Part shown: piece by piece, positions 1,449 through 25,335 of the stretch
Numbering within the stretch: the first letter of the stretch is position 1
Layout of the letters: each line of letters begins with the position of its first letter
Origin: an uncultured Planctomycetaceae bacterium
GTDB taxonomy: Bacteria > Planctomycetota > Planctomycetia > Pirellulales > JAEUIK01
Direction of reading: 5' to 3'
NCBI GenBank assembly: GCA_964576465.1
Contig: CAZNXE010000002.1
Coordinates: forward strand, 8,114-42,612
Length of the DNA stretch: 34,499 nt
Notes under the pieces: generated by a model
What the model was told of the DNA's origin: nothing
Seen by the model: the letters and a program-made list of their open reading frames with translations, nothing else
Database searches by the model: none
Translations under genes and position numbers: made by a program

Positions 1449-3050
1449 TCAGCCCGACGATGACTCGCCGGCTTCCTCGTCGCCGGAGTTGAAAGAGGCC
1501 AGCAGCCGGCGGCCTTTGTGGATCCAATACGCCTCGGTTGGGCCAAGCGGGCGGCTTGTGGTTCCAGCCCCATACCACGACATGGTCTCTCCGTCGACAA
1601 CCAAGAACCCCGGCTGCCGCGATCGCGTGGCTCGGTAGACTGGAATGCTTTGACCGAAGAACCGGCCGACCATTGCCAACTCGATGTCGTCGGCGACGAG
1701 TTCTTCGCCCGCCATTTCGAGGGTCTCTCGCTCGGTGTCGGAGAGTTGCGACACCTCGTCTTCAGCCAGTTCAGGGTGTTCGGAATGCCAACCGGCGTAA
1801 ATCGCATAAATGTCCGACGGCGCCAGATCTTGCAAGTCGACGGCCAGGCAGTAGGTCGTCGGGCCGACCAGCCCGATTCCAATGAGGGCTCCTTGGGGAA
1901 ACGGATACTCGTACCGTATCAAGAAGCAATCGCGCGGCTGGTCAAAGCCTGGCCAATATTGGTGACAATGATCGATGACTTCGGTGCTCTGCGGTGCAAG
2001 GCCGATCTGCCGTGGTTCGGCCAGCCAACTTGAAAGCTGGGCCTCGGCGCGGGCCATCGGCGTGCGGAATTCCTCTGGCACGTCGTCGAGTTGGTCGAGT
2101 TCTTCCAGGTAAGCCAGTGCCCTCGTACGCGCCGCCGGATCGGCGGCCAGCTCAACTAAGATATCGATACCGCTTTTCTCTCCTAGTCGAGCTAGCGCCG
2201 TGGCGGCTTCTGCTCGCAGGCGGCGATGTGTTAGCTCCAACACGGTGTTCAGCGCGGGGATCGACGACGCATCGCCGATCGAACCGAACGCATCGCACAA
2301 TGCAACGATGACCGACGCGCTCTCGCCAATCAGACGCTGTAGCTCTTCCTGCGTACTGGCGTACTTGCCCGGCTGTTCCTCGACGAGCCGCAATCGATGA
2401 GCCATCGCCTTCAAGAGGCCCGTCAAGTGTTCCAATCGCGCGGCCGCCGGGTGAACATCGACCATTTGACGATGCCACAGGTGGTTTGCTAGATCGAGGA
2501 CGATGGCCGCCAATACCGGCCGATCCAGCGCGTCGAACAACCTCGGGTACAGCGTGTCGACATCAAGTCGCGTGGCTTGAAATAAAGGTGCACAAACAGC
2601 GTCAAGCTGCCGGGCTTCCACGGGTGGATCGACAACAAGCCTCTCGGCAAGCAGGCCGAGCGAAGTGGAATCGGCGGCTGACGCTAGCAATCGCAAGACC
2701 TGATATCGGGCGGCAGTTTCCGGCCCCAGTCGATCATAAAGTTCTGCTAGAAACTCGATCGTTCGACGCGAAAGCGGCTCGACACTTGGTTCGCTGGACG
2801 GACGAGCCTTGCCGTAGCGATGCCCGAGACTCCCGAACAGGGCCTCAAGCAATTGGGAATCTAGTTCGACATCGTCGCTCATCTCGGGCGCGGGCAACCG
2901 GTTCAAGATCGCATGGATCAGGTCGCGAACTTCTTCGTCCGTCGCGTATTTCCAGAGGTCGACCGTGTCATCGGCTACCTCGGCGACGTTCGCCGGGTCT
3001 CTTTTTTCTCGCACTAAACTGTTCAGAAACCGCTCGATCGATGGGGACAT
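1449..3050 (-). CDS. HEAT/PBS-lyase-repeat-containing hypothetical protein
   Basis: Long ORF with helical repeats (ALCDAFGSIGDASSIPAL, LRAEAATALARLG, RALAYLEEL). ATG at 3050 chosen; the ORF track extends to 3074. Confidence 0.7.
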   Translation of the reverse strand: MSPSIERFLNSLVREKRDPANVAEVADDTVDLWKYATDEEVRDLIHAILNRLPAPEMSDDVELDSQLLEALFGSLGHRYGKARPSSEPSVEPLSRRTIEFLAELYDRLGPETAARYQVLRLLASAADSTSLGLLAERLVVDPPVEARQLDAVCAPLFQATRLDVDTLYPRLFDALDRPVLAAIVLDLANHLWHRQMVDVHPAAARLEHLTGLLKAMAHRLRLVEEQPGKYASTQEELQRLIGESASVIVALCDAFGSIGDASSIPALNTVLELTHRRLRAEAATALARLGEKSGIDILVELAADPAARTRALAYLEELDQLDDVPEEFRTPMARAEAQLSSWLAEPRQIGLAPQSTEVIDHCHQYWPGFDQPRDCFLIRYEYPFPQGALIGIGLVGPTTYCLAVDLQDLAPSDIYAIYAGWHSEHPELAEDEVSQLSDTERETLEMAGEELVADDIELAMVGRFFGQSIPVYRATRSRQPGFLVVDGETMSWYGAGTTSRPLGPTEAYWIHKGRRLLASFNSGDEEAGESSSG

Positions 3051-3499
3051 GACTTGAATTATAACTCCGCGCACGGTGGTCGTCGCCCAAGGTACTCAAC
3101 TCGACGAAGAGGTTGCCATGCGCGATTCGTGGGATGTCGTTGATCCAATGGTAGCGCCTTCAGTGGAGGTCTGCGTGGCTTCGATCGGCGACGGCGACGA
3201 GAGGATATCTGGCACTCAGGAAACTAGGGTAAGAATTCGCCTTGACGTAAGACGAGCGAAGATGCTTCAATGCGCGCACAGGATGCATCCAAGTTGGTTG
3301 TCTCCTACGGTTCTCGGTCGCCTTCACCTAGTCGGTGACAGAGGGAGCATCTGAAAAACAAGGAGTTCGTTAAGCATTAGCGTGGGCCGCGCAAGCTTGA
3401 TCGCGCGGCACCGACATTCGATGGCGTCTGCCCGCGACGGGTACCAGCGGGACTGATCCATCAGCAATAACAGGTACCCAGCTTTCAGGAGCCACGGAA

Positions 3500-5320: not shown

Positions 5321-6868
5321 TCATTCCGGCCCATCTTCTTGTCTCGCCGCGATCGCCCGTTGCAACAGGTTGTGCGTGATTTGCTGCACACGCGCGTCGG
5401 GCCCGTGGGGGCGGCTCCAGTGCGACCACGGCAGCGTGTGGCCCGGAGGTGAGCTAAGCCCTTGAGCCCAAAAGATCGTCGAGGCGTTGAAGACGAAGTT
5501 CCCTTTGGGCCCGGGATAGATTGTTGCGGCCCATTGTTGAGGATTCTCACCGCCTTGCCACGCGGTGCCCGCGGCAACAACTTCCAAACCGGGAAGATCG
5601 GCCGGCGCCCCGTGGTATTCCCAACCGATTAGCCCCGGAATCCGCGCGCCCTTTTTCATGCCGGTGCCTGCGAACATCCAATGATTCGGCTTCTCGATCA
5701 CCCAGTCGCCGCCACCATTGACGGGCTCCACGTTGCGGACCCCCATGAGCAGGCCCTCGTCGGGACCATGTTCTGGAAACGGTCCATGTTCGCGTTCGCG
5801 CAGCAGCGCGTAGTCGTTGTCCGCTCCATACGGACCCCCGCGAAAAATGATGCGATTGGGTCGGCCATCGGAACTGGCACGAAAAGGAGTCACCCAGCAG
5901 ACGGAATTGCCGGAGAGAAACAACAGGCTCGTTCCCGCATCTCGCATTTGTTCGACGCTGCGAAACTGTCGAATGTCCCAATACTCATCATGCCCCACGC
6001 TGATAAACGCACGGCATTTCATGCCGCGTTCGGGCGTGAGCAGATCGCAATTGCAACAATAGCTAACATCGTACCCATGCTGTTCGAGCCAATACGAAAG
6101 CGGGAACTCCAGTGGCAGAAACTCCCCCGACCCGAACGTCAGCGGATCGTTCACGACACCCGTGTATTGCGCTTCACGGCCATAAGGTCGATCGAAGCTC
6201 ACATCGGCCCACGGTCCCTGGTTCCCCTTCGGGTGTGTGTAGACCGAGTAGTTGTTAGGCCAGCGGTTGTATGCTTGCCAGGTGTTGTCTGAACACTGAA
6301 ACAAGATATCCGCCGGACGGTCATCGCGAACGACAAAGACCACATAGCTTTGCCAATAGGGGCCCTCATCTTTCGCGGGGAGCGTCGTCAGCCGGCCAAG
6401 ATAAACGCCGCTCAACCAATCCCCGGGGATGCGCAGACTTGTGGCGGGTTCCCAGCGACATTCGTGCAGGTTCTTCTCTCCGCGTGCGGGAACCGGTTGC
6501 GTCTTGCCCTGAAATGGCCCCAGAGTCGTCATCCGCCGAGCGCCTCTCCCGCCGTAATACCCCATCCGGAAGACGTCGATCTCGAATCGCCGAGGTGGAT
6601 CGGTAGAGACCATGATGTCGAGCGACTCTCCTGCCTTCACGCTTTGTTTTGAGCAGTATCCTTCGATCCACGGTGAGCGGAAGCCGTCGGCATCGGCCCG
6701 GACGCGGGTCAATTGCCAATCGGTTGCTCCCGGTAGAAGATTCTCTTCAACGATTCGCTGGGAACGCTGCGCCGTCGGATCCTGCTCGTCCGCGCCAACA
6801 AGTTCTGTCGAAAATGCGAAACACAACAGCCATGCGACTAGCCAAATCCGTGAAACATCTCGGTGCAT
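5321..6868 (-). CDS. Exported N,N-dimethylformamidase beta-subunit-like (DUF6605-type) protein
   Basis: Signal-peptide-like N-terminus (MHRDVSRIWLVAWLLCFAFS). Motifs RMGYYGG, W.SGVYL, NTWQAYN, VSFDRPY and GHDEYW. Confidence 0.75.
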   Translation of the reverse strand: MHRDVSRIWLVAWLLCFAFSTELVGADEQDPTAQRSQRIVEENLLPGATDWQLTRVRADADGFRSPWIEGYCSKQSVKAGESLDIMVSTDPPRRFEIDVFRMGYYGGRGARRMTTLGPFQGKTQPVPARGEKNLHECRWEPATSLRIPGDWLSGVYLGRLTTLPAKDEGPYWQSYVVFVVRDDRPADILFQCSDNTWQAYNRWPNNYSVYTHPKGNQGPWADVSFDRPYGREAQYTGVVNDPLTFGSGEFLPLEFPLSYWLEQHGYDVSYCCNCDLLTPERGMKCRAFISVGHDEYWDIRQFRSVEQMRDAGTSLLFLSGNSVCWVTPFRASSDGRPNRIIFRGGPYGADNDYALLREREHGPFPEHGPDEGLLMGVRNVEPVNGGGDWVIEKPNHWMFAGTGMKKGARIPGLIGWEYHGAPADLPGLEVVAAGTAWQGGENPQQWAATIYPGPKGNFVFNASTIFWAQGLSSPPGHTLPWSHWSRPHGPDARVQQITHNLLQRAIAARQEDGPE

Positions 6869-13413: not shown

Positions 13414-15738
13414 CTATTCTTTCTCGGGAGCGACCAGCTTGGCCAACGGTCGCAGCACTTCGACGGCTGCCGGCGGGAACGCCGCTGCCTCCTTGCTCCA
13501 AAAGCTGACGACCGCCGCCTGGCCATCAATGGTGATCGGCACATGCAGGCTACTGCTTACAGCCGTCGACATCGTCTTCAGATCTCCACCGCCGGCAGTT
13601 GAAAGGGTGTCGTACACGGTTTCGTTGCCACCGGTGGCAATCTTGGCCAGCGTCGATTTTTTGGTCGCATATTCGAGGTCCGTCCGACCCAACGGATAGT
13701 CGAGCACGATCGGTTGTGCAACCTGAAGGAAACGCAGCGTGGGGCCGTCGACGACGCTGACGCCGATGCGGTCTACCTGCGGTACAATGCGTGCAACGCG
13801 CTGCAAGAACTTGTCGGCGTCCTCTTGCGATTCAAGAAATCTACCGGCGGCGCGCCGGGCCAGCCCCGTGATTCGCGGCGGCTTTTGCTTCGCTTTCTCA
13901 AGGAATCGGGCCGTACGTGTCTTGGCGTTCTTATCGAATTCGGTCGAATCGATATCGTCACTCTCGGAGTACCAGCCGATCATCATCTCTTCCCACGTTT
14001 GATCGCCCCAATAGACATCCGATGTTGGGTCGGGGTTTGCCAGGTTGTCTTCCGAATTGTCGAAGTGTGCCAGGCAATAGAGTTGCGAGCCCGCGGGCGC
14101 CAATTTTGGCTCGGCCAACATGTAGATCGTTTGCCAGTTGAAGTCGTATTGCGGTACGTCGAGCAGGGTTTCAACGCGGCCATCGGGATAACGAAGGTCG
14201 TAGCGGAACGCCTTGCCACGCAGATGCATGTGCGGGGCAAACGTCAATAGCAACGTGTCTTTGTGGAATGTCTTGGTCGCCTCGACCGGATGATTGTTCT
14301 CGCCAGCGGGAATCTTGAACCCAAAGTTGATCGCCATGTTCATGCGCACATCGTGCTTCACTTCCGAGGCATCGCGGAACTTAAAGCCAACTGCCGTGCG
14401 ATCGGTTGTCTCGTGGCCGTTTGCCGTGTAGTGCATCTGGAAAATGAGCTTGGTGCCAGCCTTAAGATGTGTGGCCATGCCGTCGGCAAATGTCCAGGGT
14501 GGCGTTCCCGGTGCGGCACCCGCGATCAACTCGATGCCACCTTTCCCAGGATTAAACTCGCCATCGCCACGGCCCTCTTCCGCACTCCGGAAGTCGGGTT
14601 CGGGGGTGCCCGGCGGGAGCGAGAACACGAAGATGTGATGCACCACAGAGCGGTTCCCCAGCAAACACTCCGAACCGCACATCCAACGGTCTTCTTTCCA
14701 GCCGGGATCCACGGTGAAGTATTGATAGTCGATCGCCCCGTCGGCGGGCACGGTGTAGGGTTCGTCGCTCATGTAATAGACCGCATCGGGCTCGCCCATT
14801 TGCCAACCCTCGGGATACTCGATCGGCTCGGGAAGTTCCGCCGGGTCGCCTTGGGGGGCGCCGTTGCGAACCCAGGCGTAGATCGTCTCCTTGTCTTCGT
14901 TGGGCATGCTGCGGTCGTTGAGAAAGTGGCCGTACTTCGGATCCGCGTGCCATGGAGGCATCCGCTGCAAGCGTACGACTTCCTCGATCATTTCGGCCCA
15001 ACCTACAATTTCGTCATACTCGGTTAGCGAGAAGGGAGCGATTTGCCCTGGGCGGTGGCACTCGACGCAGTGAGTTTGCAGAATACGTGCGATCTGGTTC
15101 GTGTAGGTGATCTCGCTGTTGAGGTTCGGCTCGCGAATTCGCCCAATCAGGCAGCCCGGGGCGTCGGTCGTCGACGGTTCCATGGTCTCGCCCGCAAGGA
15201 CCGCCTCGATCGATTCGGCCAAATAGCGGCGGCGGACATCGGTCTTGGCATAGCCGGTGCTTGGCCCGAGGCCATACTGATCGTCGACGCGACCTCGATA
15301 GCGGATGACGCGCTGCGCGTCGAGCACGAACACTTCTGGTGTTCGCAGGGCGGCAAACTGGTCGGCCACTACGTTGCCGGTGTCTTTTAGAAGCGGAAAC
15401 TTCACGCCATGGATCCGCGCGAAGTGGGCCAGCTCGGTAACCGAATCTTGACGATTCGAATACACGCCCAGGAACGTTACATCCCGAGCAGCGAATTCGT
15501 CAGCGAGTTTTTGCAATCGTGGGCCATAAAGTTTGGCCAACGGGCATTCGGTGCCCAGAAAGGCCACGACCACGCATGGGCTAGAAGCGTATTCCTCCAG
15601 CGTGTGTTCGCGTCCGCGGAAGTCCTGCATCGCAAATCCATCGATCTGTTGCCCGATGGAACTCGCCGGATCGATCTCAGCCGCAACCGTGGGCATCGCT
15701 ATGGCCATGACAACTAGGATGGGTGTTACGTATCGCAT
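13414..15738 (-). CDS. Exported redoxin + cytochrome c + copper type II (PHM/DBH-like) monooxygenase-fold protein with a C-terminal GAF-like domain
   Basis: Signal peptide; redoxin FLGTECPLA...RTPEVFVLD...YRGRVDDQY; CVECH heme-c motif; VVHH, QMHY, PHMHLRG and EEMM copper-ligand-like motifs. ATG 15738 follows GAGG. Confidence 0.8.
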   Translation of the reverse strand: MRYVTPILVVMAIAMPTVAAEIDPASSIGQQIDGFAMQDFRGREHTLEEYASSPCVVVAFLGTECPLAKLYGPRLQKLADEFAARDVTFLGVYSNRQDSVTELAHFARIHGVKFPLLKDTGNVVADQFAALRTPEVFVLDAQRVIRYRGRVDDQYGLGPSTGYAKTDVRRRYLAESIEAVLAGETMEPSTTDAPGCLIGRIREPNLNSEITYTNQIARILQTHCVECHRPGQIAPFSLTEYDEIVGWAEMIEEVVRLQRMPPWHADPKYGHFLNDRSMPNEDKETIYAWVRNGAPQGDPAELPEPIEYPEGWQMGEPDAVYYMSDEPYTVPADGAIDYQYFTVDPGWKEDRWMCGSECLLGNRSVVHHIFVFSLPPGTPEPDFRSAEEGRGDGEFNPGKGGIELIAGAAPGTPPWTFADGMATHLKAGTKLIFQMHYTANGHETTDRTAVGFKFRDASEVKHDVRMNMAINFGFKIPAGENNHPVEATKTFHKDTLLLTFAPHMHLRGKAFRYDLRYPDGRVETLLDVPQYDFNWQTIYMLAEPKLAPAGSQLYCLAHFDNSEDNLANPDPTSDVYWGDQTWEEMMIGWYSESDDIDSTEFDKNAKTRTARFLEKAKQKPPRITGLARRAAGRFLESQEDADKFLQRVARIVPQVDRIGVSVVDGPTLRFLQVAQPIVLDYPLGRTDLEYATKKSTLAKIATGGNETVYDTLSTAGGGDLKTMSTAVSSSLHVPITIDGQAAVVSFWSKEAAAFPPAAVEVLRPLAKLVAPEKE

Positions 15739-15835
15739 CGCATTTCCTCGCAGGTTTGGGCCCCGCAACAGTGGCAATCCCAGGTTGCCCTGGTAGTTGG
15801 TTCGGTTGTTTTGAAGGGATCGTTTCAATGCACTC

Positions 15836-16495
15836 TCAGCATGCTTGTGGTGAGATGCCCAAGTAACTCAAAAAACAGCGCACGAGTTCGCCCGGCAGTC
15901 GGGCATCGTGCAGTTCGATGATTTCGACCTCGCTCACGCGAAACAGGGTGAGGCGATCTAGCGTGCTGAGGATCATCTGCAATCCGATTTGGATGGCCAA
16001 CGTGGGGTCGGGATGTTCGATCGTCTCGGCACGCGCCAAGATCAGATCACGTAGGCGACCGACCAGATGTGCATTCAACGGAAGCCACCGTTTGCAGAAC
16101 TCATCATCGACACAGCCTCGCACGATGAACGCGCGAATCAGGCCGGTCTTCTGGCGGTAGACTTCGACCAGAAAGGGAATCGTCTCGCTAAGAATCTCGG
16201 CGATCGAACTCGCTTCCCATCGCACGGGATCGAGCACGGCGTCGGTCGTTGCCATGGCCTCATCGGTAAAGCGATCGTGGAGGCAACCCAGCAGGGCTTC
16301 TTTTTCCTTGAAGCGACCATAGAAGGCACCGACGGAGGTTTCCGAACGGCGAACAATCTCGGCAACGGTCGCGCCCTCGAAACCCTTCTCGGCAATGACT
16401 TCCTCAGCCGCATCGAGCATTCGCTCAAGGCTCATCTGGCTACGCGATTGAAGCGGCGGCTTGACCCAACCGACGCGCCCGACAACTTGGCTCAT
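15836..16495 (-). CDS. TetR/AcrR family transcriptional regulator
   Basis: N-terminal HTH (MLDAAEEVIAEKGFEGATVAEIVRRSETSVGAFYGRFKEKEALL). Confidence 0.92.
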   Translation of the reverse strand: MSQVVGRVGWVKPPLQSRSQMSLERMLDAAEEVIAEKGFEGATVAEIVRRSETSVGAFYGRFKEKEALLGCLHDRFTDEAMATTDAVLDPVRWEASSIAEILSETIPFLVEVYRQKTGLIRAFIVRGCVDDEFCKRWLPLNAHLVGRLRDLILARAETIEHPDPTLAIQIGLQMILSTLDRLTLFRVSEVEIIELHDARLPGELVRCFLSYLGISPQAC

Positions 16496-16566
16496 CCCAC
16501 ACTCCCGATCTTCAATCAATGCCCGCCGGCGAGCAGATTCCCCCGGCAGAGATTCAAGCTGATAGC

Positions 16567-16741: not shown

Positions 16742-17662
16742 CTATGACGATCGCATGCGTCGAGAACGCCACAAGGCCAAAGGCAAGAAGGCTAGCGCGA
16801 AGCTGGCGAGGGTCAGCGTTCCGGGTTCAGGTACGGGTATGGTTGTTCTGGCGACTAACACACCGGTAAAGCCGATACTCACGGGACGGATGAGCCCGGG
16901 GCTGGGGAACCCATCATCCGAACCATATAGAGCCTCCACACTTACCGGTATGACTATCTCAAAATCGCCGCCGCCGAGGGAAATTAGGGTTCCGTCAATA
17001 TCAGAGTCGGATGTGTTATCCTCACCGCTCAAATCAAGGAAGCTAAAATCTCCGAATATATTGGATTCGAACGTAGCTCCAGTAACCACGGTCCCCCCCG
17101 TGGCTCGAATTGGGAAACGACTCGAAAATGTCATCGTTTCGCCAACTGGAAGGTTTGGCGAAATCGGCAGCGAGATTCCTTGCAGGTTTGTTTCAAATAT
17201 ACGAAACAGGAAGGAAAAATCGAAAATGGCCGTCGTGACTGTGACTGGTGGTCCTCCCAGGATGTCAGGTCCGATAGCGATTTCGTGACCATAGTTGGCT
17301 GGACCAGAAACAATAGACGTTGGATCCGTGCCCTCTGCCCTCCAAGTACCGCTGTTCGCGGCGACGATGTCGCTGCTAATTCCAGAGGAGATCATTCCGC
17401 TGGCGAGGTCTAAGTCGGCGTCAAACGTCCCACTGTAACTGGTCACCAACGAGCCAGGCCCCTGTCCAAAGGAGAGGATGTCAAAAAATGGAATACTACC
17501 GGGAATAGCGACATCTCCGATGGGAGAGAGATCTATTGTCGATAAAGTCAGTTGGCTGCGAGATGGGTCGAGCGTGAAGGTCAAGGGCACAGCCTGGGCT
17601 GATGTGGCTGCTGCAATCAATCCAAAAGCGAGTGTGTAGCCAAAGCATTTGTATCGCGTCAT
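16742..17662 (-). CDS. PEP-CTERM sorting-domain protein
   Basis: Signal peptide ending ATSAQA. C-terminal VPEP + hydrophobic helix + RSRRMR. ATG 17662 follows GAGGGTGG; alternative start at 17695. Confidence 0.88.
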   Translation of the reverse strand: MTRYKCFGYTLAFGLIAAATSAQAVPLTFTLDPSRSQLTLSTIDLSPIGDVAIPGSIPFFDILSFGQGPGSLVTSYSGTFDADLDLASGMISSGISSDIVAANSGTWRAEGTDPTSIVSGPANYGHEIAIGPDILGGPPVTVTTAIFDFSFLFRIFETNLQGISLPISPNLPVGETMTFSSRFPIRATGGTVVTGATFESNIFGDFSFLDLSGEDNTSDSDIDGTLISLGGGDFEIVIPVSVEALYGSDDGFPSPGLIRPVSIGFTGVLVARTTIPVPEPGTLTLASFALAFLPLALWRSRRMRSS

Positions 17663-17778
17663 GTTTGCCACCCTCTGGGCTTGTCCTGTTGCCATGATTC
17701 TGGAACTAAGATTGTCTTCGAGGCCAAGGAAAAGACCTTCTCAAGGTACTGCTCCTGGGCTGTTCCATATTGCTCATC

Positions 17779-17853
17779 AAAAAAAACGACCTCTCAATTG
17801 TTTCTACTACTGGCCAGCACATGGGCGGCGGTAGAAGAAATTGAGAGGTCGTT
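17779..17853 (-). terminator. Long-stem intrinsic terminator (possible attenuator or sRNA end)
   Basis: Perfect 15-bp arms at 17785-17799 and 17839-17853, extended by TTCTAC/GTAGAA. A8 at 17779-17786 gives U8 on the minus strand. Confidence 0.75.
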
Positions 17854-17943
17854 ATTGAATTAGCGTTACTGCCGAGTTTGTCGTGTTAGGTAAGAGTCGC
17901 TCGAACACTGAATGGTGGTGCGGGTTCAACAATCAGCAACACA

Positions 17944-17972
17944 ATTCTCATTGAATTTCCCTCAGATGTCAA
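17944..17972 (-). promoter_or_regulatory. Candidate sigma70 promoter
   Basis: Minus strand TTGACA (17972-17967), 17-bp spacer, GAGAAT (17949-17944). Confidence 0.55.
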
Positions 17973-18050
17973 GGATTTTGAAAACGGAATTTCCAGAGAA
18001 ACCGCATGTTTTTCTGCCTAGCAAATGGTTGAGCTACCCGAAAACGGATT

Positions 18051-20387
18051 CTAATCAGCAACTGTCCTGAGCTCAAACGCCGGCTTCTGGGACATTTCGA
18101 TCGCTGCGTGTCGATAGAACGGGTAGACGCTCCACTCGACGCAGGTCAGTAGATCGGGGCGCCCGTCGTCGTCCATGTCGGCGACCCAGGGATGAGGGCC
18201 GTGTGCGGTGACTTTGATGGGTTCGCCATAACAGCAAAGCGTGCGAGGATTGGCAAACACCGGCTCGCTGCGCGTACCCACATTCCTCAACAGGTAGATA
18301 CTGCCGTCGGCAGCGCGGGTACCGGCGCAACTGTAGATCAGGTCGATTCGCCCGTCACCGTCCCAATCGGTGGACCGAAATGATTCAGTCCAATGGCTCG
18401 TTCGGCCGACGATCGAATCGTCGATCTCGCGCCCGTCGGCCAATCGTAGCGGAGGCCCTTTGCGGAGCCGCAACTGTTGCTGATCGTCACGATATCGCAC
18501 GAAGAGCGTTGCTTTTCGCGTATGCCCGTCGTGCGTGACCAAATCGATGAGACCGTCGTCGGTAAAGTCGGCGAAGCAGGCGCCCGTACGCCAAAAGAAA
18601 GGGCGTTCCGCTTCGTAGGGATAAGGTTGGTTCGGTTCGTCGGGATCACTTGAGCGGCGTGCCGAGAGTGCTCGCATTTCATCGGAGTCGGGATACCCGT
18701 CGCAAATGACTTGGCGTCGTCGACCGAAGCGCGGCCGCTGGTGGCTTCCCTCGTTCTTGTACCAAAAGATGCGATTGGTCTCGTTGGGCAACATCAAATC
18801 GGCAAGGCCGTCGCTGTCCCAGTCGACGAACACCGGCAGTGGGTAGCCCATATTGTGCCAGTGCTTGCCACCGAGAACCTCGTCACGAAGTATGCGGATC
18901 GGCCCCTGTTCATCTTCGATTCGCTGCGCGAGCGAGAACTGAGGTCGACGGTTGGTGCCACGATTGAGCACGATGCGCGGCCAACCGTACCCGCCACCAA
19001 CGAGGAGATCCCAAACATGGTCTCCATTCCAATCGCAAACACATGGCCACGCCTGATCGCTCAATGCCAACACGGCGGATTTAGATCTGGGCGTTCCGAC
19101 TCGGCGAAAACGAGGTTGATCGGTCGTGAGTGGCTCTTGTTGGTAATACTCGACATGCTGCCCCATTCCGTACCCCACGAGCAAGCCGACGTGGTGATCA
19201 TCACGAACGGCAGCCAGTGAAGTACACCAGGTGCGGTCGATGCCTTGTAGTGGTTGCTTGGGGCCGAAACGGGGAGGATCACCCCCAAGATTGCGTTGCC
19301 ATGCGACGCTCGCGGCGCGGGTATCTGTTGCGGGTCCGTCGACAAGGCAAATGGCATCGAGTTGGCCGTCGCCGTCGAGATCGGCGAAGCATGCTTCACG
19401 CCCGACGTCCAAGTCGACAGGTGGAGCTAAGCGGATGGGCCAACCGTCTGCGTTTGTATTGCGGGCGTAGGCTCCTGATACCACCAGATCGACCGCACCG
19501 TCCCGGTTGAGATCGACAGCGCGACAGGGATTCCAACCGCTGGAAGGTCGCTCCACACTGCCGGCAGCTTCAAAAATCGGGAAGCCTGTCGGCTCACGTC
19601 GGCCACGGTTGAGATAGAACTGCAATGTCTTGGATCCACTCGGAGAAAAAACCAAATCGGGCAGGTCGTCGCCGTTGAGGTCTCCTACGGCGGCGTGCAT
19701 GTACGTGCCGGTGAAATGATTCGGCGGGCCGTCGTTTTCCGCCGCCGCGGCCCAACGCAAACGGCTCAGATCGCCGAACTCCAGTGGGCCCGCGTTCGCC
19801 AGACCTGGAAAAGCTATGACTCCGTCCCATGGCCAGCCGGGGCGATAAGCATAGTTCCAGCACCCGATCAGGTCTCGCAAGCCGTCGCCGTTCAAATCGA
19901 GTAACCCGCTGAGGTAGATGGGGGCAATCGGTCGCGGTTCACCGGCGTTGTATCGCAGCAGGTCGCCCACGCCGATCAACGGCGTGTGTTCTTGCGGTAG
20001 CAGCGGCGGGCGCTCGCGAACCGTATTGAAGCGAATCTCGTAATCGCGTCGCTCAGGATTCTCGATGACCCACTGCAAGTGACCGCGATCGGAATAGGCA
20101 AAATCCTCGGTTCTCGCCGAAGCCACTGGCGCATGCGATGTGGTATCGAAGACTTCGATCGAATTCGGGTCGACGACGCCCTTCCAATTCTCCGCGGCAA
20201 CGATCTTTGCGAAGTCGATCTCAACGTCCAACGGAACATTTGCCATCGGGAGATCGGAAGTGATCGTTAAGTGCAGTCGATGAGGATCGCCTCCGGATGA
20301 TGGAGCAACCCTGCCACACAACACGACCGCCAACAATCCAACAACGGCGTAGGGTAACGAAGGGCATCGCGCGAGGAAGGGATACAT
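18051..20387 (-). CDS. Exported FG-GAP/VCBS-repeat (beta-propeller-like) protein
   Basis: Multiple DxNxDGxxDL motifs (DLNGDGLRDLI, DLNGDDLPDLV, DLDGDGQLDAI, DWDSDGLADL, DWDGDGRIDLI, DMDDDGRPDLL) and a hydrophobic N-terminus. Confidence 0.85.
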   Translation of the reverse strand: MYPFLARCPSLPYAVVGLLAVVLCGRVAPSSGGDPHRLHLTITSDLPMANVPLDVEIDFAKIVAAENWKGVVDPNSIEVFDTTSHAPVASARTEDFAYSDRGHLQWVIENPERRDYEIRFNTVRERPPLLPQEHTPLIGVGDLLRYNAGEPRPIAPIYLSGLLDLNGDGLRDLIGCWNYAYRPGWPWDGVIAFPGLANAGPLEFGDLSRLRWAAAAENDGPPNHFTGTYMHAAVGDLNGDDLPDLVFSPSGSKTLQFYLNRGRREPTGFPIFEAAGSVERPSSGWNPCRAVDLNRDGAVDLVVSGAYARNTNADGWPIRLAPPVDLDVGREACFADLDGDGQLDAICLVDGPATDTRAASVAWQRNLGGDPPRFGPKQPLQGIDRTWCTSLAAVRDDHHVGLLVGYGMGQHVEYYQQEPLTTDQPRFRRVGTPRSKSAVLALSDQAWPCVCDWNGDHVWDLLVGGGYGWPRIVLNRGTNRRPQFSLAQRIEDEQGPIRILRDEVLGGKHWHNMGYPLPVFVDWDSDGLADLMLPNETNRIFWYKNEGSHQRPRFGRRRQVICDGYPDSDEMRALSARRSSDPDEPNQPYPYEAERPFFWRTGACFADFTDDGLIDLVTHDGHTRKATLFVRYRDDQQQLRLRKGPPLRLADGREIDDSIVGRTSHWTESFRSTDWDGDGRIDLIYSCAGTRAADGSIYLLRNVGTRSEPVFANPRTLCCYGEPIKVTAHGPHPWVADMDDDGRPDLLTCVEWSVYPFYRHAAIEMSQKPAFELRTVAD

Positions 20388-20502
20388 GAATTGGTCGCCA
20401 GGGGGTGAGATAGATAATCTTCCCCAGCGTACAAGCAGCTCAACTGCATTGCGAATCGAAGGGCGACGAGCATGGCCGCGGATCGCCTATGAAATATTCA
20501 GC

Positions 20503-21585
20503 CTAGAGTTTGCCGAGTTCCGAGATGATTTTCTTGGGCGATGGCCGATCGGCGTAGTTGCGCCCGCGCTTGACATAGCGGAGGATGCCTTCGCGATCGA
20601 TGATGAACGTGCCGGGGCGGTTGCTGACTTCGGTGTGAATCCGCATCTGGAAGGCGACCCCGTAGGCAGCGCTCACGGTGTATGTAGGATCGGTCAGCAA
20701 GGGATAGTGGACATCGTCTTCATCGAAGCCGACCTCCTTGAGCAAGAACTTGGCCGACCACGACTCGTGTGGGTCGACGGCTAAAAGCACGGCATCAAGT
20801 TTCACGATCGCCTCGAGCTGCTCGCGCAACTGCGCGAGTTGTCGGTGACAGACGGGTCATGTATCGCCATAGATAAAGACCAGCACCACGGCCTGCTGAC
20901 CGCGAAAATCACTCAGCGAGATCTCTTGTCCGTCGATGGTCTTCAAGGTGAAATCGGGGGCAGGTTCACCAACTTGTGCCGTAGCGATGTTCGCCGGATC
21001 CCAATGGGCGAACCGCTCGACAACCGCCTGATCGATGGGATGGTCTTGGCGGTCGATCGCGTACGCAATGTGTTTCTTTACATCGCCGTTCGACTCCGTG
21101 GCGGCCAGCGAACTCAACTGCTCGGCGATGGAAGGGTCGCCGCGCATGCCCAACGCATCGACAGCGTAAAGCCGAACGGCCGCGTCAGGGTCATCGGTGG
21201 CTGCCGCCCACAGTGGTTCCGTGGGAACCAGCGGGGCCAAGTAACTGAGCGCCTGCGCCGCCAGCACGCGCTCGTGCGATTGGCCCGACTGAAGTGTCTC
21301 GACTAGCGGGGCAACAGAAGTCTGGCCCGCGGCAACAAGTCCATGCAACACCCGCATCCGCAATTGCCAGTCACGGTCGTCGAGGGGCCGCATGAATTTT
21401 CGTTTTCCTGGAACTCCCCCGCCATCCCACTCGGCTTCATTCCAGCCTTCCGTGAAGCGACCGAGCAGCCCCTCGGGCGAGGTTGTTGGTTCGGCTGCCC
21501 CGAGGGTGGCGATGCCGACGAATGATCCAAGAAATGCCGCAAGAGCGACATGCAACCCACGGATGATTGAGCATCGAGAAAGCAT
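20503..21585 (-). CDS. Probable selenoprotein: signal peptide + HEAT repeats + AhpC/TSA-type redoxin with a U-P-V-C motif (in-frame UGA at 20859-20857)
   Basis: The ORF-track pieces 20857..21768 and 20503..20829 are in the same frame. Read-through gives ...APDFTLKTIDGQEISLSDFRGQQAVVLVFIYGDT-U-PVCHRQLAQLREQ...PGTFIIDREGILRY, a complete redoxin fold. 360 aa with the UGA at codon 243. GGGAG RBS precedes ATG 21585. Confidence 0.85.
20821..20838 (-). promoter_or_regulatory. Candidate bacterial SECIS element
   Basis: mRNA CUCGCGC-AGUU-GCGCGAG: a 7-bp stem with G at loop position 2 followed by U. The loop starts 25 nt 3' of the UGA. Confidence 0.7.
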
Positions 21586-21593
21586 AAGGCTCC

Positions 21594-22106
21594 CTACTCC
21601 AAGTGGCTTGCCGATGGCAGCGTGCCGAGCACGGCCAACAGTTGTGGGGTCTCTACTTGACGGATGAGGCCACGTGCGATGAGTTGGTCCTGCTGTTGGC
21701 ATTCGGGGCATGTTGCGTCGTTGCATGCAACCGCGTTGGATAGGACAGGATCTCGCTGTGCTACCCAACCCATCATTTCTGCTTTAGGACGGCACATGTC
21801 GCATTGGGCCAAATGTAGCCGAACTTTTTCCGACGTTTCTTCGTCAAGTTGGTCGTCAAGGAAATGTGGCAGTGCTGCCTGCACTTCGGTACAAGAAATA
21901 CCGCCGTAGTTGTGTTGAGTCTCGCCGGTGAGGCTTGGCAAGGCTTGCCAAATGGTGACTGCCAGCACGAGCGTGAGCGCCGACACTATTCCACCTCGAA
22001 CGACGGACTGTTTACGTCTGCTCGCCTGAATGCGACCGACCATCCGGCTCAACTCACCGGGTGGACATGCGTCCCAGTCGTCATTTTTTGAAGCTTTCGC
22101 GTTCAT
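21594..22106 (-). CDS. Single-pass membrane protein with a zf-HC2 (ZAS-like) domain after the TM helix
   Basis: Basic RRKQSVVR, then a TM helix (GIVSALTLVLAVTIW), then ISCTEV...HLAQCDMC and a further CNDATCPEC. Its stop abuts the RBS of the redoxin gene. Confidence 0.8.
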   Translation of the reverse strand: MNAKASKNDDWDACPPGELSRMVGRIQASRRKQSVVRGGIVSALTLVLAVTIWQALPSLTGETQHNYGGISCTEVQAALPHFLDDQLDEETSEKVRLHLAQCDMCRPKAEMMGWVAQRDPVLSNAVACNDATCPECQQQDQLIARGLIRQVETPQLLAVLGTLPSASHLE

Positions 22107-22229
22107 TCCGCAGATCTCATCGTCGTAAACAGCACCAGGAAGGGGAGGTATTTCATGGTCAAGGCATCCAAGGTCGAGAACAGGAACCTTGCCTACTCAA
22201 TCATTGTCAGGTTTTTGGGCGAATAAGTC

Positions 22230-22245
22230 TGTGATCCCGATTACA
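22230..22245. promoter_or_regulatory. CRP-type binding site, class II promoter geometry
   Basis: TGTGA-TCCCGA-TTACA, one mismatch to TGTGA-N6-TCACA. Setting its centre at -41.5 places minus-strand GACAAT (22208-22203) exactly at -12..-7. Confidence 0.65.
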
Positions 22246-22272
22246 AATAGGAGCTTGCGGCCCAGTTTTTTG

Positions 22273-23025
22273 CTATGTGGATCGTTGCCCCCCCAGGCTG
22301 GGTATTTTGGCGGGTGGGGGTGGTTCGGCGGGGAGTTCCGCTTGCACACTCTTGGCCATTCGGTCGATGTCGGAGAGCACGATTTTCCGACGCGCAAGCT
22401 GGACCATGCCTTCGTTCTGAAGTTCACCGAGAGCGACCGTCACCGATTCTCGCGTACTTCCAATCAGGTTGGCCAGGTCTTGATGCGAGAGTTTGATGGC
22501 TAGTTGGATTCCTTGGGGGACCGGTTGACCATATTTCTCCGACAATTCAAGCAATGCATGCACGAGCCGCTCGCGGTTCGAGCGAAACATGAGGTTCTTT
22601 AGCCGTCGTTCGATCCGCCGCCGACGCAATCCAAGCAGTTGTGTCACCTCCATGGCGACATGCGAATGACGCTGCATCAGTCGTTGAACCGCATTGTGAG
22701 AGATCAAGACGACGTCCGAGGTTTCAATCGCCGTGGCGAATTCTTCCCGGTCTCCGTTGGCATCGAGCAGGGCTAATTCACCAAAAATCTCCCCTGGCTC
22801 AATGAACGCGATGATCGATTCCTTGCCATCGGACGAAATATTGCAAATCTTGATTCGACCGGAAACCAACAGCAGCACCGCGTTTGCTTGGTCGGCTGGC
22901 AAATAGACGAGCGATTTGCGCGGAAAGCTGCGCATACGAGCCGACGACTCGAGTTCGGTCAATTCGTCGGGGGTGAGCTGCTCGAACAGGCTGCACCGCT
23001 TCAGATGCCAAGTCTTCTCAGACAT
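22273..23025 (-). CDS. Crp/Fnr family transcriptional regulator
   Basis: cNMP-binding fold (LLVSGRIKI, PGEIFGELAL) and HTH LSHQDLANLIGSTRESVTVALGEL. ATG 23025 follows GAGGT. Confidence 0.93.
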   Translation of the reverse strand: MSEKTWHLKRCSLFEQLTPDELTELESSARMRSFPRKSLVYLPADQANAVLLLVSGRIKICNISSDGKESIIAFIEPGEIFGELALLDANGDREEFATAIETSDVVLISHNAVQRLMQRHSHVAMEVTQLLGLRRRRIERRLKNLMFRSNRERLVHALLELSEKYGQPVPQGIQLAIKLSHQDLANLIGSTRESVTVALGELQNEGMVQLARRKIVLSDIDRMAKSVQAELPAEPPPPAKIPSLGGQRST

Positions 23026-23136
23026 ACCTCTACCGAGGGCCTTTGAAAGAATCAGGCGTGAGAATGGGCAAGATGGCGTATTCTCCGGGCTAGCGTGACG
23101 CCAGGGAGAACCTACCAATCTTACGCGACGATTCGG

Positions 23137-25335
23137 CTACCGCATACCCATTTCACAGCTTACCCCTCCGGCAGCGGGGAGATAGCTCGATTTCACATAG
23201 TCCATCACCATGCGATGGGCACTAAATCGCCACGCCAGCGAACCGATGGAACTTTTCATGCAGTTGATCCATCCTCGTGGCAGGCCATCGACGTCGCGAT
23301 CGTAGTACAGGGGGATCACCTCCTCCTCGAGCACGCGATAAAAATCTTCCGCATCGCGACGGTCGTTGATCTCGTCTGAAACGTGACAGGTGCCGCCTCC
23401 GATGCCGAAGCCGTTGGTGCCGTCGAAAGCCTCGGCCCACCATCCATCGAGCACCGACATGTTTAGCCCGCCGTTGAGCACTACCTTTTGGCCACTCGTC
23501 CCGGAGGCCTCCAGCGGCCGTCGCGGGTTGTTGAGCCACACATCGACGCCCTGAATCATGTGGCGACAAACATTGATGTCGTAGTCCTCGACAAACACAA
23601 TCCGGCTATTGCAGTTCTCGTCGAAACGCAGGTTCGCAATGCGTTTGATCAACTGCTTGCCTGGTTCATCGGCCGGATGGGCCTTTCCGGCAAAGATGAT
23701 CTGGATCGGTCGCTTCGAGTCGTTCAGCAACGCATACAGCCGATCGATGTTGGTCATCAGCAGGTCAGCACGTTTGTACGTTGCGAAGCGGCGCGCAAAA
23801 CCGATCGTCAACACGTTGGGGTCGAGCATGTTCCGCGCGGCTTCGACCGCGTCGTCACTCTCGCCGCGTCGTCGGCTTTGCCGGCTCAATCGTCTTCGGA
23901 CGAAAGTAAGCATCAGGCTCTTTAGCGCGTGATGGGTTTCCCAGAGCTCGCCCGAGTCAACATTGTGGATCCCTTGCCACACTTCGGGTTCGCCCATTCT
24001 TTGGAACCAATCGGCCGCAAAGTGGCGGTCGTAAAGTTGACGCATTTGATGGGCCAACCAACTGGGGACATGAACACCATTGGTAATATGACCGATTGGG
24101 ATTTCTTCCTCGACGCGCCAGGGCCACAGCAGCCCCCACATGCGACGCGAGACATGGCCGTGCAACGCGCTCACGGCGTTGGCACGTCGCGATAGCTTCA
24201 AGGCCACGACTGTCATGCAGAACGACTCATCGTGGTTTTGCGGTTCGACGCGCCCCAAGCCCATCAGTTGCTCGAAGGAGATGCCAAGTTGCTCGCGGGT
24301 TGGCCCCAGATGCTCTTCGACCAAACCGCCGTCAAAGCGATCGTGCCCCGCCGGAACGGGGGTGTGGGTGGTGAAGACCGTCCGCTGGGCAACCTCACGC
24401 AAGGCGTCGTCAAACGTAAGGCCATCGGTCTGCATGCGGTCACGAATCACTTCCAACGGTGCGAACGCGCTGTGCCCTTCATTCAAATGGTACACGCCGG
24501 GGTTGATCCCCAATGCCCGAAGTGCCTTGACACCTCCGACTCCCAACACAAGTTCCTGGCGAATGCGCGTCCGCGTGTCGCCGCCATACAATCGGCTCGT
24601 CAATTGCCGATCCTCGGGCCGGTTTCCCTCGACGTCGCAGTCGAGCAGGTACAGCGAGACGCGGCCAACCTGCATGAGCCAAACCTTGGCCAGCAAACGT
24701 CCGGTCCGTGTGTCGATGCTTACGCTGATCGGTTCGTCGTTGGCATCCAGCGCCGGCACCATTGGCAGGTTTTCGACTTGCGTGTCGATGTACTCCTCGA
24801 CTTGATAGCCTTCGATGTCGAGGCGTTGTCGGAAATACCCTTGATCGTAGAACAGCCCGATGGCCACCAGCGGAGCGCCTAAATCGCTGGCCGCCTTGAT
24901 ATGATCGCCCGACAGAACCCCTAGGCCGCCAGAGTAAATCGGGGCCGATTCGTGCATCCCGAACTCGGCCGAAAAATATGCGACCGGCATCGACCCCAGC
25001 ACGCCCGCATGTGTCGCGCCCCAAGTTCGCGTCGCGCTCATATAATCCTTGAGCCGGCGATGCGCGTAGTTGATGCGGCTATACAGCACAAGCTCCGAAG
25101 CCCGCATGTCTAGCCGTTCGGGCGTAAACTCCGACAACAGAGCGATCGCGTTGTGGTCGAGTTGTCGCCAGCGAATGGGGTCCAAGTCTCGGAACAGATC
25201 GACAACCTCGGGTTGCCAACTCCACCACAGATTTCGGGCGAGCGTGATACATTTGTCGTACAGCGTTTGCGGAGAAAGTTCCGCAAACGGTGATGGCAGT
25301 TGTGGAGAATTCGGATCGATTTTGGTTTGGCTCAT
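23137..25335 (-). CDS. glgP: Alpha-glucan (glycogen/maltodextrin) phosphorylase
   Basis: YFSAEFG, YSGGLGVLSGD, HLNEGH, FTTHTP, ITNGVH, ARRFATYKR, GKAHP and EASGTSGQK (PLP lysine). Confidence 0.95.
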   Translation of the reverse strand: MSQTKIDPNSPQLPSPFAELSPQTLYDKCITLARNLWWSWQPEVVDLFRDLDPIRWRQLDHNAIALLSEFTPERLDMRASELVLYSRINYAHRRLKDYMSATRTWGATHAGVLGSMPVAYFSAEFGMHESAPIYSGGLGVLSGDHIKAASDLGAPLVAIGLFYDQGYFRQRLDIEGYQVEEYIDTQVENLPMVPALDANDEPISVSIDTRTGRLLAKVWLMQVGRVSLYLLDCDVEGNRPEDRQLTSRLYGGDTRTRIRQELVLGVGGVKALRALGINPGVYHLNEGHSAFAPLEVIRDRMQTDGLTFDDALREVAQRTVFTTHTPVPAGHDRFDGGLVEEHLGPTREQLGISFEQLMGLGRVEPQNHDESFCMTVVALKLSRRANAVSALHGHVSRRMWGLLWPWRVEEEIPIGHITNGVHVPSWLAHQMRQLYDRHFAADWFQRMGEPEVWQGIHNVDSGELWETHHALKSLMLTFVRRRLSRQSRRRGESDDAVEAARNMLDPNVLTIGFARRFATYKRADLLMTNIDRLYALLNDSKRPIQIIFAGKAHPADEPGKQLIKRIANLRFDENCNSRIVFVEDYDINVCRHMIQGVDVWLNNPRRPLEASGTSGQKVVLNGGLNMSVLDGWWAEAFDGTNGFGIGGGTCHVSDEINDRRDAEDFYRVLEEEVIPLYYDRDVDGLPRGWINCMKSSIGSLAWRFSAHRMVMDYVKSSYLPAAGGVSCEMGMR

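Follow-up and report, generated by a model that had tools for sequence, protein, structure and literature searches.

A Crp/Fnr regulator is usually viewed as a soluble one-component sensor, and a ZAS domain as a cytoplasmic clamp on a sigma factor. An operator centred at -41.5 is the geometry of promoters of class II, which CRP activates. In the ZAS anti-sigma factors RsrA, RsiW, RslA and ChrR, the motif C/H-x23-26-H-x3-C-x2-C lies in an N-terminal cytoplasmic domain that precedes any membrane helix, and in RsrA this cluster acts as a thiol-redox switch. The cluster of RslA acts in the same way, according to the available part of one report (PMC2877774), and a review (PMC9312934) lists 'Prx-like thiol:disulfide oxidoreductase' proteins (pfam00578, UxxC or UxxU) as a kind of selenoprotein. 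The window analysed here, a 34,499-nucleotide (nt) stretch of contig CAZNXE010000002.1 (positions 8,114 to 42,612) from an uncultured Planctomycetaceae bacterium of the order Pirellulales, carries four minus-strand genes in the same orientation. They encode, in order of transcription, a Crp/Fnr-family regulator (Crp), a membrane protein with a zf-HC2 domain, a redoxin with HEAT repeats and a UxxC motif, and an FG-GAP repeat protein. A first-pass annotation had proposed these four genes as an undescribed selenium/thiol redox system. Its Crp control and its selenoenzyme have stood, but the boundary of the system and the link to the FG-GAP gene have not. The conserved unit in Pirellulales is Crp, a promoter and the zf-HC2 protein, not four genes, and the redoxin is an optional cargo of this pair. 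The gene order, the gaps of 8 nt (21586-21593) between the zf-HC2 and redoxin genes and of 115 nt (20388-20502) between the redoxin and FG-GAP genes, the CRP-like box and the in-frame UGA all lie where the annotation had put them.

The crp gene (22273..23025, minus strand, 250 amino acids (aa)) starts with an ATG at 23025, in agreement with the start of 34 orthologues. Its product consists of a cNMP-binding-like sensor domain followed by a Crp-type helix-turn-helix (Pfam cNMP_binding PF00027, 8e-19; HTH_Crp_2 PF13545, 4e-17; Crp PF00325, 1.5e-9; all above cut-offs), and two residues of the recognition helix, R192 and E193, do not vary among 35 orthologues. This architecture, the R-E recognition helix and the TGTGA-N6-TCACA operator are shared with E. 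coli CRP at class II promoters. The regulator differs from E. coli CRP in being tied to a membrane-protein gene and in its scores against named subfamilies: all 14 NCBIfam matches (CRP, Fnr, NtcA, FixK and others) are below their curated cut-offs, the best being the CRP equivalog with 101 bits against a required 266. It is the only protein of its genome with an HTH_Crp_2 match above cut-off, and a tblastn search of the genome with it gives one full-length match.

The operator TGTGATCCCGATTACA (22230..22245) agrees with 9 of 10 consensus positions, begins 27 nt past the crp stop codon and is the single TGTNA-N6-TNACA match in the window. Since at least one such match also appears in 22 of 100 shuffles, a lone box proves nothing and its significance comes from conservation across loci. 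For the 36 loci with Crp directly upstream of the zf-HC2 gene, the window included, the best match to TGTGA-N6-TCACA was scored in the spacer between crp and zf-HC2 or in the 250 nt that precede crp, with equal lengths taken 400 nt downstream and 720 shuffles as controls. A best box of at least 8/10 is found in 32/36 orthologous loci, compared with 4/36 downstream controls and 95/720 shuffles; at 9/10 or better the numbers are 22/36, 1/36 and 10/720, respectively. In loci with a spacer of less than 60 nt, the box is found in front of crp instead. The 27 sites located in the spacer have further features in common. The dinucleotide GA directly follows the box in 24 of them, and a hexamer stands exactly 21 nt past the box end, with the columns c-G-A-t-A-A-T occupied in 20, 23, 24, 12, 17, 19 and 24 of the 27 sites (the fourth column is T in 12 and A in 7). 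In the window the hexamer is GACAAT (22203..22208, minus strand). If it is taken as the -10 element spanning -12 to -7, the box is centred at about -41.5, the same distance as at the class II promoters of E. coli CRP, and from this geometry Crp most likely activates the membrane-protein gene together with the redoxin gene 8 nt behind it. Activation, as opposed to repression, would follow from this spacing. The box with its fixed-distance hexamer is the strongest mechanistic result of the analysis and most likely represents a Crp-driven class II-type promoter for the membrane protein. The Crp control suggested in the first-pass annotation is thereby borne out at the level of sequence conservation, with the redoxin gene beginning 8 nt past the end of the zf-HC2 gene.

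The pairing of the two genes extends far beyond the window. A single-protein HMMER search finds zf-HC2 relatives in 57 of 201 genomes of the same order, and a profile search finds full-length matches in 58 of the 201 Pirellulales genomes; the latter count rises to 131 of 201 if the ordinary ZAS domains of ~300-aa anti-sigma factors are counted, which match the zinc-finger part only. The family is detectable only by such HMMER genome searches and by the profile search, a word-indexed protein search with the single zf-HC2 protein returning the protein itself alone and a single-protein search for related loci returning no relative. In a survey of 40 zf-HC2 loci, from which the window's own was left out, Crp immediately precedes the zf-HC2 gene in the same orientation in 37; in L064 and L084 it is encoded a few kb off on the other strand, and in L057 it is not seen. 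In a reverse survey, the starting points were the 80 top-ranking Crp orthologues from genomes of named species. Nearly all are labelled Pirellulales, Pirellulaceae, Planctomycetaceae or Planctomycetota, and Adhaeretor mobilis, Bythopirellula, Blastopirellula and Mariniblastus are among their hosts. Of the 80 loci, 75 offer 600 nt or more behind Crp, and a gene of the zf-HC2 family comes next in 66 of these; it also does so in 2 of the 5 shorter loci. Across the phylum, in a sample of 201 genomes, full-length zf-HC2 proteins occur only in Pirellulales and in one other family of the class (5 of its 8 genomes), where Crp is adjacent in 6 of 7 loci. Clustering of the open reading frames (ORFs) of the 38 non-own loci and the window gives no third conserved gene. 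The gene-neighbourhood analysis that the first-pass annotation had called for thus keeps Crp and the zf-HC2 protein together and finds the FG-GAP gene at no other locus.

At two of the loci, L057 and L064, Crp's place is taken by a Cys-rich multipass membrane protein (L057:2896-3489, L064:2647-3486) with the motif C-G-A-W-G-C and without a Pfam match. The order there is Cys-rich multipass protein, zf-HC2 protein, thioredoxin-like protein and pyridine-nucleotide disulfide oxidoreductase, and relatives of the multipass protein are present at 6 loci. A sigma factor was considered for this position and rejected, as the gene encodes the membrane protein just described. At L231 (G337, in the second family of the class), a zf-HC2 paralogue without an adjacent Crp has two upstream boxes (10/10 and 9/10), and TAGAAT stands at class II distance behind the proximal box, implying regulation in trans.

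The zf-HC2 protein (21594..22106, minus strand, 170 aa) has PF13490 as its sole Pfam match (1.7e-7, residues 72-106; 31.6 bits against a cut-off of 22.2). A short tail with W11-x2-C14-P-P-G17-x-L and an Arg/Lys run precede a hydrophobic helix at about residues 34-56, and the ZAS domain begins ~15 residues past this helix. All four residues of the ZAS-type motif, C72-x25-H98-x3-C102-x2-C105, are invariant in 38 members, and W11, C14 and G17 of the tail are at least 90% conserved in the same set. A second Cys cluster (C-x5-C-x2-C) near the C-terminus is present in a subset of members, the window protein included. The mean number of Lys and Arg residues within 15 residues is 6.0 before the helix and 0.95 after it, and the bias towards the N-terminal flank holds in 37 of 38 members, the one exception being a case of a mis-located helix. 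By the positive-inside rule, the tail is predicted to be cytoplasmic and the ZAS domain to lie outside. Several members have RR-x-F-L directly before the helix, resembling the twin-arginine (Tat) export motif; this sequence is absent from others, the window protein among them. Where it is present, the zinc domain may be exported in folded form by the Tat pathway.

The intact and invariant C/H-x23-26-H-x3-C-x2-C motif relates the domain to those of RsrA, RsiW, RslA and ChrR, and the family profile matches solved anti-sigma domains (RsiW 6.8e-6, RslA 1.4e-5, ChrR 1.5e-4, DdvA 6e-4). Structural comparison gives a less clear picture. The AlphaFold2 model has a mean predicted local distance difference test (pLDDT) score of 81, and its top VIA match is the cytoplasmic domain of MucA, with a Z of only 5.6 and a root-mean-square deviation of 3.4 over 53 residues. 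Foldseek gives nothing at E <= 0.001 against the PDB, RsiW and RslA ranking first with E values of 3-6. Members carry the public names 'zf-HC2 domain-containing protein' and 'anti-sigma factor family protein'. Together, the motif, the profile matches, the MucA match and the second of these names would be expected of a conventional anti-sigma factor whose extracytoplasmic function (ECF) sigma factor is encoded elsewhere and whose level alone is set by Crp. Such an arrangement is improbable. The domain stands past the helix and is predicted to be outside, where sigma factors do not occur, and in the ZAS anti-sigma factors it stands before any helix. The conserved partner gene here is a Crp/Fnr regulator and no sigma factor adjoins; a Pfam scan of the 26 ORFs of the window finds no Sigma70 domain, as the first-pass annotation had also reported. 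The clustering of loci brings up no third conserved gene, and what replaces Crp at L057 and L064 is a multipass membrane protein rich in Cys, instead of a sigma factor. The zf-HC2 protein is predicted, from its sequence and that of its relatives, to carry an anti-sigma-type domain with an unusual location, past the helix, and an unusual neighbour, Crp.

What this domain would do outside the membrane may be viewed in two ways. The protein could be an effector rather than a sensor, acting as a periplasmic Zn/Cys redox relay, a metal chaperone or a docking site that Crp switches on and that sends nothing back, a view close to the 'anchor or electron partner' of the first-pass annotation. It is the first gene behind the Crp-dependent promoter, a subset of members has Cys-rich tails, one zf-HC2/redoxin fusion exists, and the paralogues without Crp at L057 and L064 stand in thiol-redox clusters beside thioredoxin-like and pyridine-nucleotide disulfide reductase genes. 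All of this would suit an effector. A plain target, however, needs no lasting bond to its regulator across two families (37/40 and 66/75 loci), the conserved tail W-x2-C-P-x-G-x-L is left unexplained by a protein that acts outwards, and the neighbouring enzymes are highly variable. The effector role, the main rival of the sensing role, is considered rather unlikely, and among the roles of sensor, anchor and electron partner named in the first-pass annotation, that of a putative sensor fits best with the data. The annotation had also made the zf-HC2 protein a dedicated partner of the selenoenzyme. This does not agree with the distribution of the two proteins, as zf-HC2 is found in 58 of 201 genomes and the redoxin in 16, and the redoxin lies behind zf-HC2 in only 7.

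The sensor reading would give the tail a task that has parallels. In CnrY/CnrH and PtsG/Mlc, a transcription factor is captured or set free by a short stretch of a membrane protein on the cytoplasmic side. The same logic is proposed for the conserved N-terminal tail of the zf-HC2 protein, although these families are unrelated to it and the contact is here only proposed. When two Crp chains were modelled together with residues 1-36 of the membrane protein, without controls, the predicted complex scored 0.28 and 0.15 against a mark of 0.32, which counts neither way.

The third gene (20503..21585, minus strand) encodes 360 aa when its TGA is read as U, with an N-terminal signal-like segment and Pfam matches to AhpC-TSA (6.9e-28), Redoxin (1.4e-18) and HEAT_2 (1.6e-10). 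Orthologues at E < 1e-60 occur in 16 of 201 genomes of the same order, the own genome included. All 16 have an in-frame TGA, always within [Y]-G-D-T-U-P-V-C; in the window it is the UGA at 20857..20859 (minus strand), read as selenocysteine (Sec) U243 in the motif T-U-P-V-C-H. The DNA directly after the TGA is near-invariant, synonymous positions included, in proteins that are only 46-60% identical. There, RNAalifold predicts a stem of six pairs, capped by an AGUU loop and beginning 19 nt past the UGA, with no broken pair in the 16 sequences and one compensatory change (UCGCGC-AGUU-GCGCGA in the window, 20822..20837, minus strand). Its placement and loop can be set against the spacing and loop rules of the bacterial selenocysteine insertion sequence (SECIS), which it resembles. 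The fold energy past the UGA is by itself unexceptional (z -0.98; 31 of 200 shuffles are as good), so that the hairpin is persuasive through its conservation only. A scan of the whole window with Rfam brings no family to its gathering score, the hairpin included. The genome encodes the Sec machinery, with tRNA-Sec (70.1 bits), SelB (391.9), SelA (545, adjoining selB) and SelD (293.1) all above cut-offs. By these sequence criteria the HEAT + UxxC protein is a genuine selenoprotein and is probably exported, much as the first-pass annotation had it. Most relatives in the databases are 230-245 aa long and cover 55-67% of the query, indicating that most of these entries were cut at the UGA by gene callers.

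The best solved relative of the redoxin is AhpE of M. tuberculosis (Rv2238c, 5e-14). The peroxidatic Cys45 of AhpE aligns with the Cys of UxxC and the catalytic Arg is kept, but U replaces Thr42 and Tyr replaces Pro, so that neither the Thr nor the Pro of the canonical peroxiredoxin motif P-x3-T-x2-C is preserved. Distant Cys-form paralogues with HEAT and AhpC-TSA domains read W-C-P-V-C-H at the UxxC site, and W-C-x-x-C is the signature of TlpA/ResA-type reductases. This signature and a strong Crp box upstream of dsbD recall the TlpA, ResA and CcmG reductases, which are fed by DsbD; the ResA, DsbE and TlpA models, however, score the redoxin far below their cut-offs. No NCBIfam model reaches its cut-off with the protein, the best being a SelL-related redox protein with 59.6 bits against 120. 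Its AhpC-TSA domain, UxxC motif and bacterial-type hairpin past the UGA, in a genome with Sec machinery, place the redoxin by sequence among the known 'Prx-like thiol:disulfide oxidoreductase' selenoproteins. It differs from them in the signal-like N-terminus and the HEAT repeats (the word HEAT does not occur in PMC9312934), and in its frequent linkage to the Crp/zf-HC2 pair.

Several other possible selenoproteins were considered. A distant HEAT + AhpC-TSA paralogue in G040 (L111, ~1277-2107) has an in-frame TGA within D-C-U-G-G-C and may be another Sec form. P0015, a 630-aa fusion of HEAT, AhpC-TSA and DUF3179, is named 'DUF3179 domain-containing (seleno)protein' at NCBI, and its sequence prints S at the position of the window's U. 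The HEAT protein at 1449-3074 was rejected as a second selenoprotein, because read-through of its TGA adds just six residues before TAA/TAG. DsbD was rejected as well, since the TGAs are ordinary stop codons in both cases checked (G072 and G137).

The redoxin is linked to the pair often but not always. It stands directly behind zf-HC2 in 7 of 14 evaluable non-own orthologues, one further orthologue being cut by a contig end. Seen from the other side, it follows zf-HC2 in 5 of 40 zf-HC2 loci, with one C-terminal remnant in addition, and occurs in 1 of 80 Crp loci. The zf-HC2 family is present in 15 of 16 redoxin-bearing genomes and in 43 of 185 redoxin-less ones, which is an association and not a test, since related genomes are not independent. 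The unlinked copy in G076 has a 9/10 box ~60 nt upstream. In G072 (L052:3492-4946), zf-HC2 and redoxin share a single open frame, uninterrupted by a stop, whose linker retains a signal-peptide-like segment; the fusion could be real or could reflect a lost stop or an assembly error. In the window, co-transcription of the redoxin with zf-HC2 across the 8-nt gap is most likely, judging from the arrangement of the genes. Two loci bear marks of rearrangement. In G027 (L069, ~2700-2830), only the last ~45 residues of the redoxin are left, in another frame right after zf-HC2, a deletion remnant showing that the redoxin cargo can be lost. In G054 (L049, ~5800-6830), the redoxin has T-U-P-V-C and the hairpin intact, but a different sequence, with W-C-P-T-C in it, stands in for its C-terminal half, and the gene could be chimeric or misassembled.

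The fourth gene (18051..20387, minus strand) encodes a 778-aa protein with FG-GAP_3 repeats (1.9e-29) and is judged to be a neighbour outside the module. The first-pass annotation had made this propeller a client or scaffold of one dedicated four-gene system. The four genes are co-oriented, and a consensus scan for terminators and promoters across 17600-23300 gives counts within shuffle expectation and no site in the 8-nt or the 115-nt gap. A single operon would look like this. However, tblastn finds no match to the FG-GAP gene in any of the 40 zf-HC2 or 80 Crp loci. In G095, of the same family, the order is phosphorylase, Crp, zf-HC2, redoxin, TetR and a ~790-aa AhpC-TSA protein, with no FG-GAP gene between redoxin and TetR; in G122, of the same genus, two other genes are found where the window has the redoxin. 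By this synteny the FG-GAP gene and the gene for a PEP-CTERM-tailed protein beside it (16742-20387 together; PF07589 at 19.5 bits, just below its cut-off) are extra in this genome. The GC content is 0.494 in 17001-18000, adjoining the inserted stretch, and 0.55-0.62 elsewhere. The stretch resembles an insertion that came between the redoxin gene and the TetR gene, and a four-gene system is nearly refuted and most improbable.

On the other side of this stretch, a TetR-family regulator (15836-16519, minus strand) adjoins an 804-aa protein (13414-15828, minus strand) with an N-terminal AhpC-TSA/ResA-like domain (2.1e-18) and a later C-x-x-C-H motif. The pair is syntenic downstream of Crp/zf-HC2 in G122 and G095, which suggests a second thiol-redox gene in the same neighbourhood. 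ARAGORN finds no tRNA in the window. Across the 40 zf-HC2 loci, the recurrent neighbours are DUF547 proteins (7), whose Pfam description links them to redox, YHS-domain proteins (5), DUF3179 proteins (4) and further AhpC-TSA proteins. Thioredoxin-like neighbours are found in 4 loci, each time as the next gene downstream and in the same orientation. At least one gene of the AhpC/TSA, thioredoxin-like or DUF547 type is present in the fetched flanks of 17 of the 40 loci, a raw count given without a background rate.

A weight matrix built from the orthologous sites was used to scan the 5.9-Mb genome and yields six sites of at least 17.9 bits, TGTGATCCCGATTACA among them; the next score down is 15.8 bits. 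With only six strong sites in the genome, Crp is on present evidence not a global regulator. One of the strong boxes lies ~215 nt upstream of dsbD, where TCACAGA is followed by a TATAAG hexamer 23 nt behind. A dsbD box of at least 8/10 is found in 4 of 8 genomes with the zf-HC2 family and in 1 of 22 without; at 9/10 or better the numbers are 2 of 8 and 0 of 22. The four other strong boxes (18.0-20.3 bits; G000:C7:35279, C11:20344, C74:18549 and C401:303) lie upstream of nuoA, upstream of yebC, near a gene for a DegP-like protease and near dnaB.

Taken as a whole, these results are best explained by a two-gene Crp/zf-HC2 regulatory module with periplasmic sensing and control of reductants, an explanation given about an even chance of being correct. 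In this module, Crp would bind the TGTGA-N6-TCACA box near -41.5 in the crp/zf-HC2 spacer and activate the membrane protein together with whichever gene follows. The membrane protein would have a short conserved cytoplasmic tail, one helix and a ZAS domain directed towards the periplasm. In this genome the transcript would run on across the 8-nt gap into the exported selenoprotein, which would have selenocysteine as the attacking position of UxxC and would probably reduce periplasmic disulfides or peroxides, with electrons presumably supplied by DsbD. The outward ZAS domain may report the thiol or metal redox state of the periplasm and modulate Crp through the cytoplasmic tail. Crp would then tune periplasmic reductants, which would be the selenoprotein in this genome and, in others, thioredoxin-like, AhpC/TSA, DUF547 or YHS proteins. 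A homeostatic loop of this kind, with the ZAS domain as a thiol/metal redox sensor feeding back to Crp and with DsbD possibly included, is put forward tentatively. That Crp is governed by a membrane partner, through an anti-sigma ZAS switch turned towards the periplasm and re-wired from sigma factors to Crp, is likewise a somewhat doubtful proposition.

Several observations weigh against this explanation. The periplasmic location of the ZAS domain is a prediction from the positive-inside rule only, and in the G072 fusion the leftover signal-like segment makes the topology ambiguous. The contact between Crp and the membrane protein and the signal that it would carry are hypothetical. AhpC/TSA and thioredoxin genes are common in these genomes, and the 17 of 40 loci with such neighbours are a raw count. 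At many loci, zf-HC2 is followed by a convergent or unrelated gene (DXP synthase, SecDF, sigma-54 activators, CstA), so the redox theme is not general; in those loci the pair would form a self-contained unit. The dsbD box is conserved only weakly and in part. Class II spacing is found at none of the four other strong boxes, and with boxes near nuoA and yebC the regulon may exceed redox functions. Finally, read-through into the FG-GAP gene is conceivable, as the 115-nt gap holds no terminator-like or promoter-like site.

The Crp/zf-HC2 pair departs from both of the usual views of its components, the regulator being encoded beside a membrane protein and the ZAS domain being predicted to lie outside. 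A literature search, in which most subscription journals were outside the scope, found no description of a Crp regulator paired with an outward ZAS domain, in line with the statement of the first-pass annotation that no system of such make-up was known. The new element would be a module of Crp and an outward ZAS protein with a promoter readable from sequence, built from known parts, together with a HEAT extension on a known kind of selenoprotein. With a box at about -41.5 and a -10 element to read, the regulon should be predictable and easily testable in cultured bacteria that have the pair, Blastopirellula marina and Adhaeretor mobilis among them. The redoxin also points to a widespread annotation error, since most entries for HEAT + Prx-like selenoproteins break off at the UGA, after some 235 of roughly 360 residues, and bear the label 'hypothetical'. 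If the sensing model is true, the pair would represent a new route of envelope redox signalling and would provide a physiological setting for a periplasmic selenoprotein. The cell would then have a direct line by which the periplasmic redox state, of thiols/selenols or of metals, acts on a Crp-dependent class II promoter and through it on the periplasmic reductants, the selenoenzyme included.

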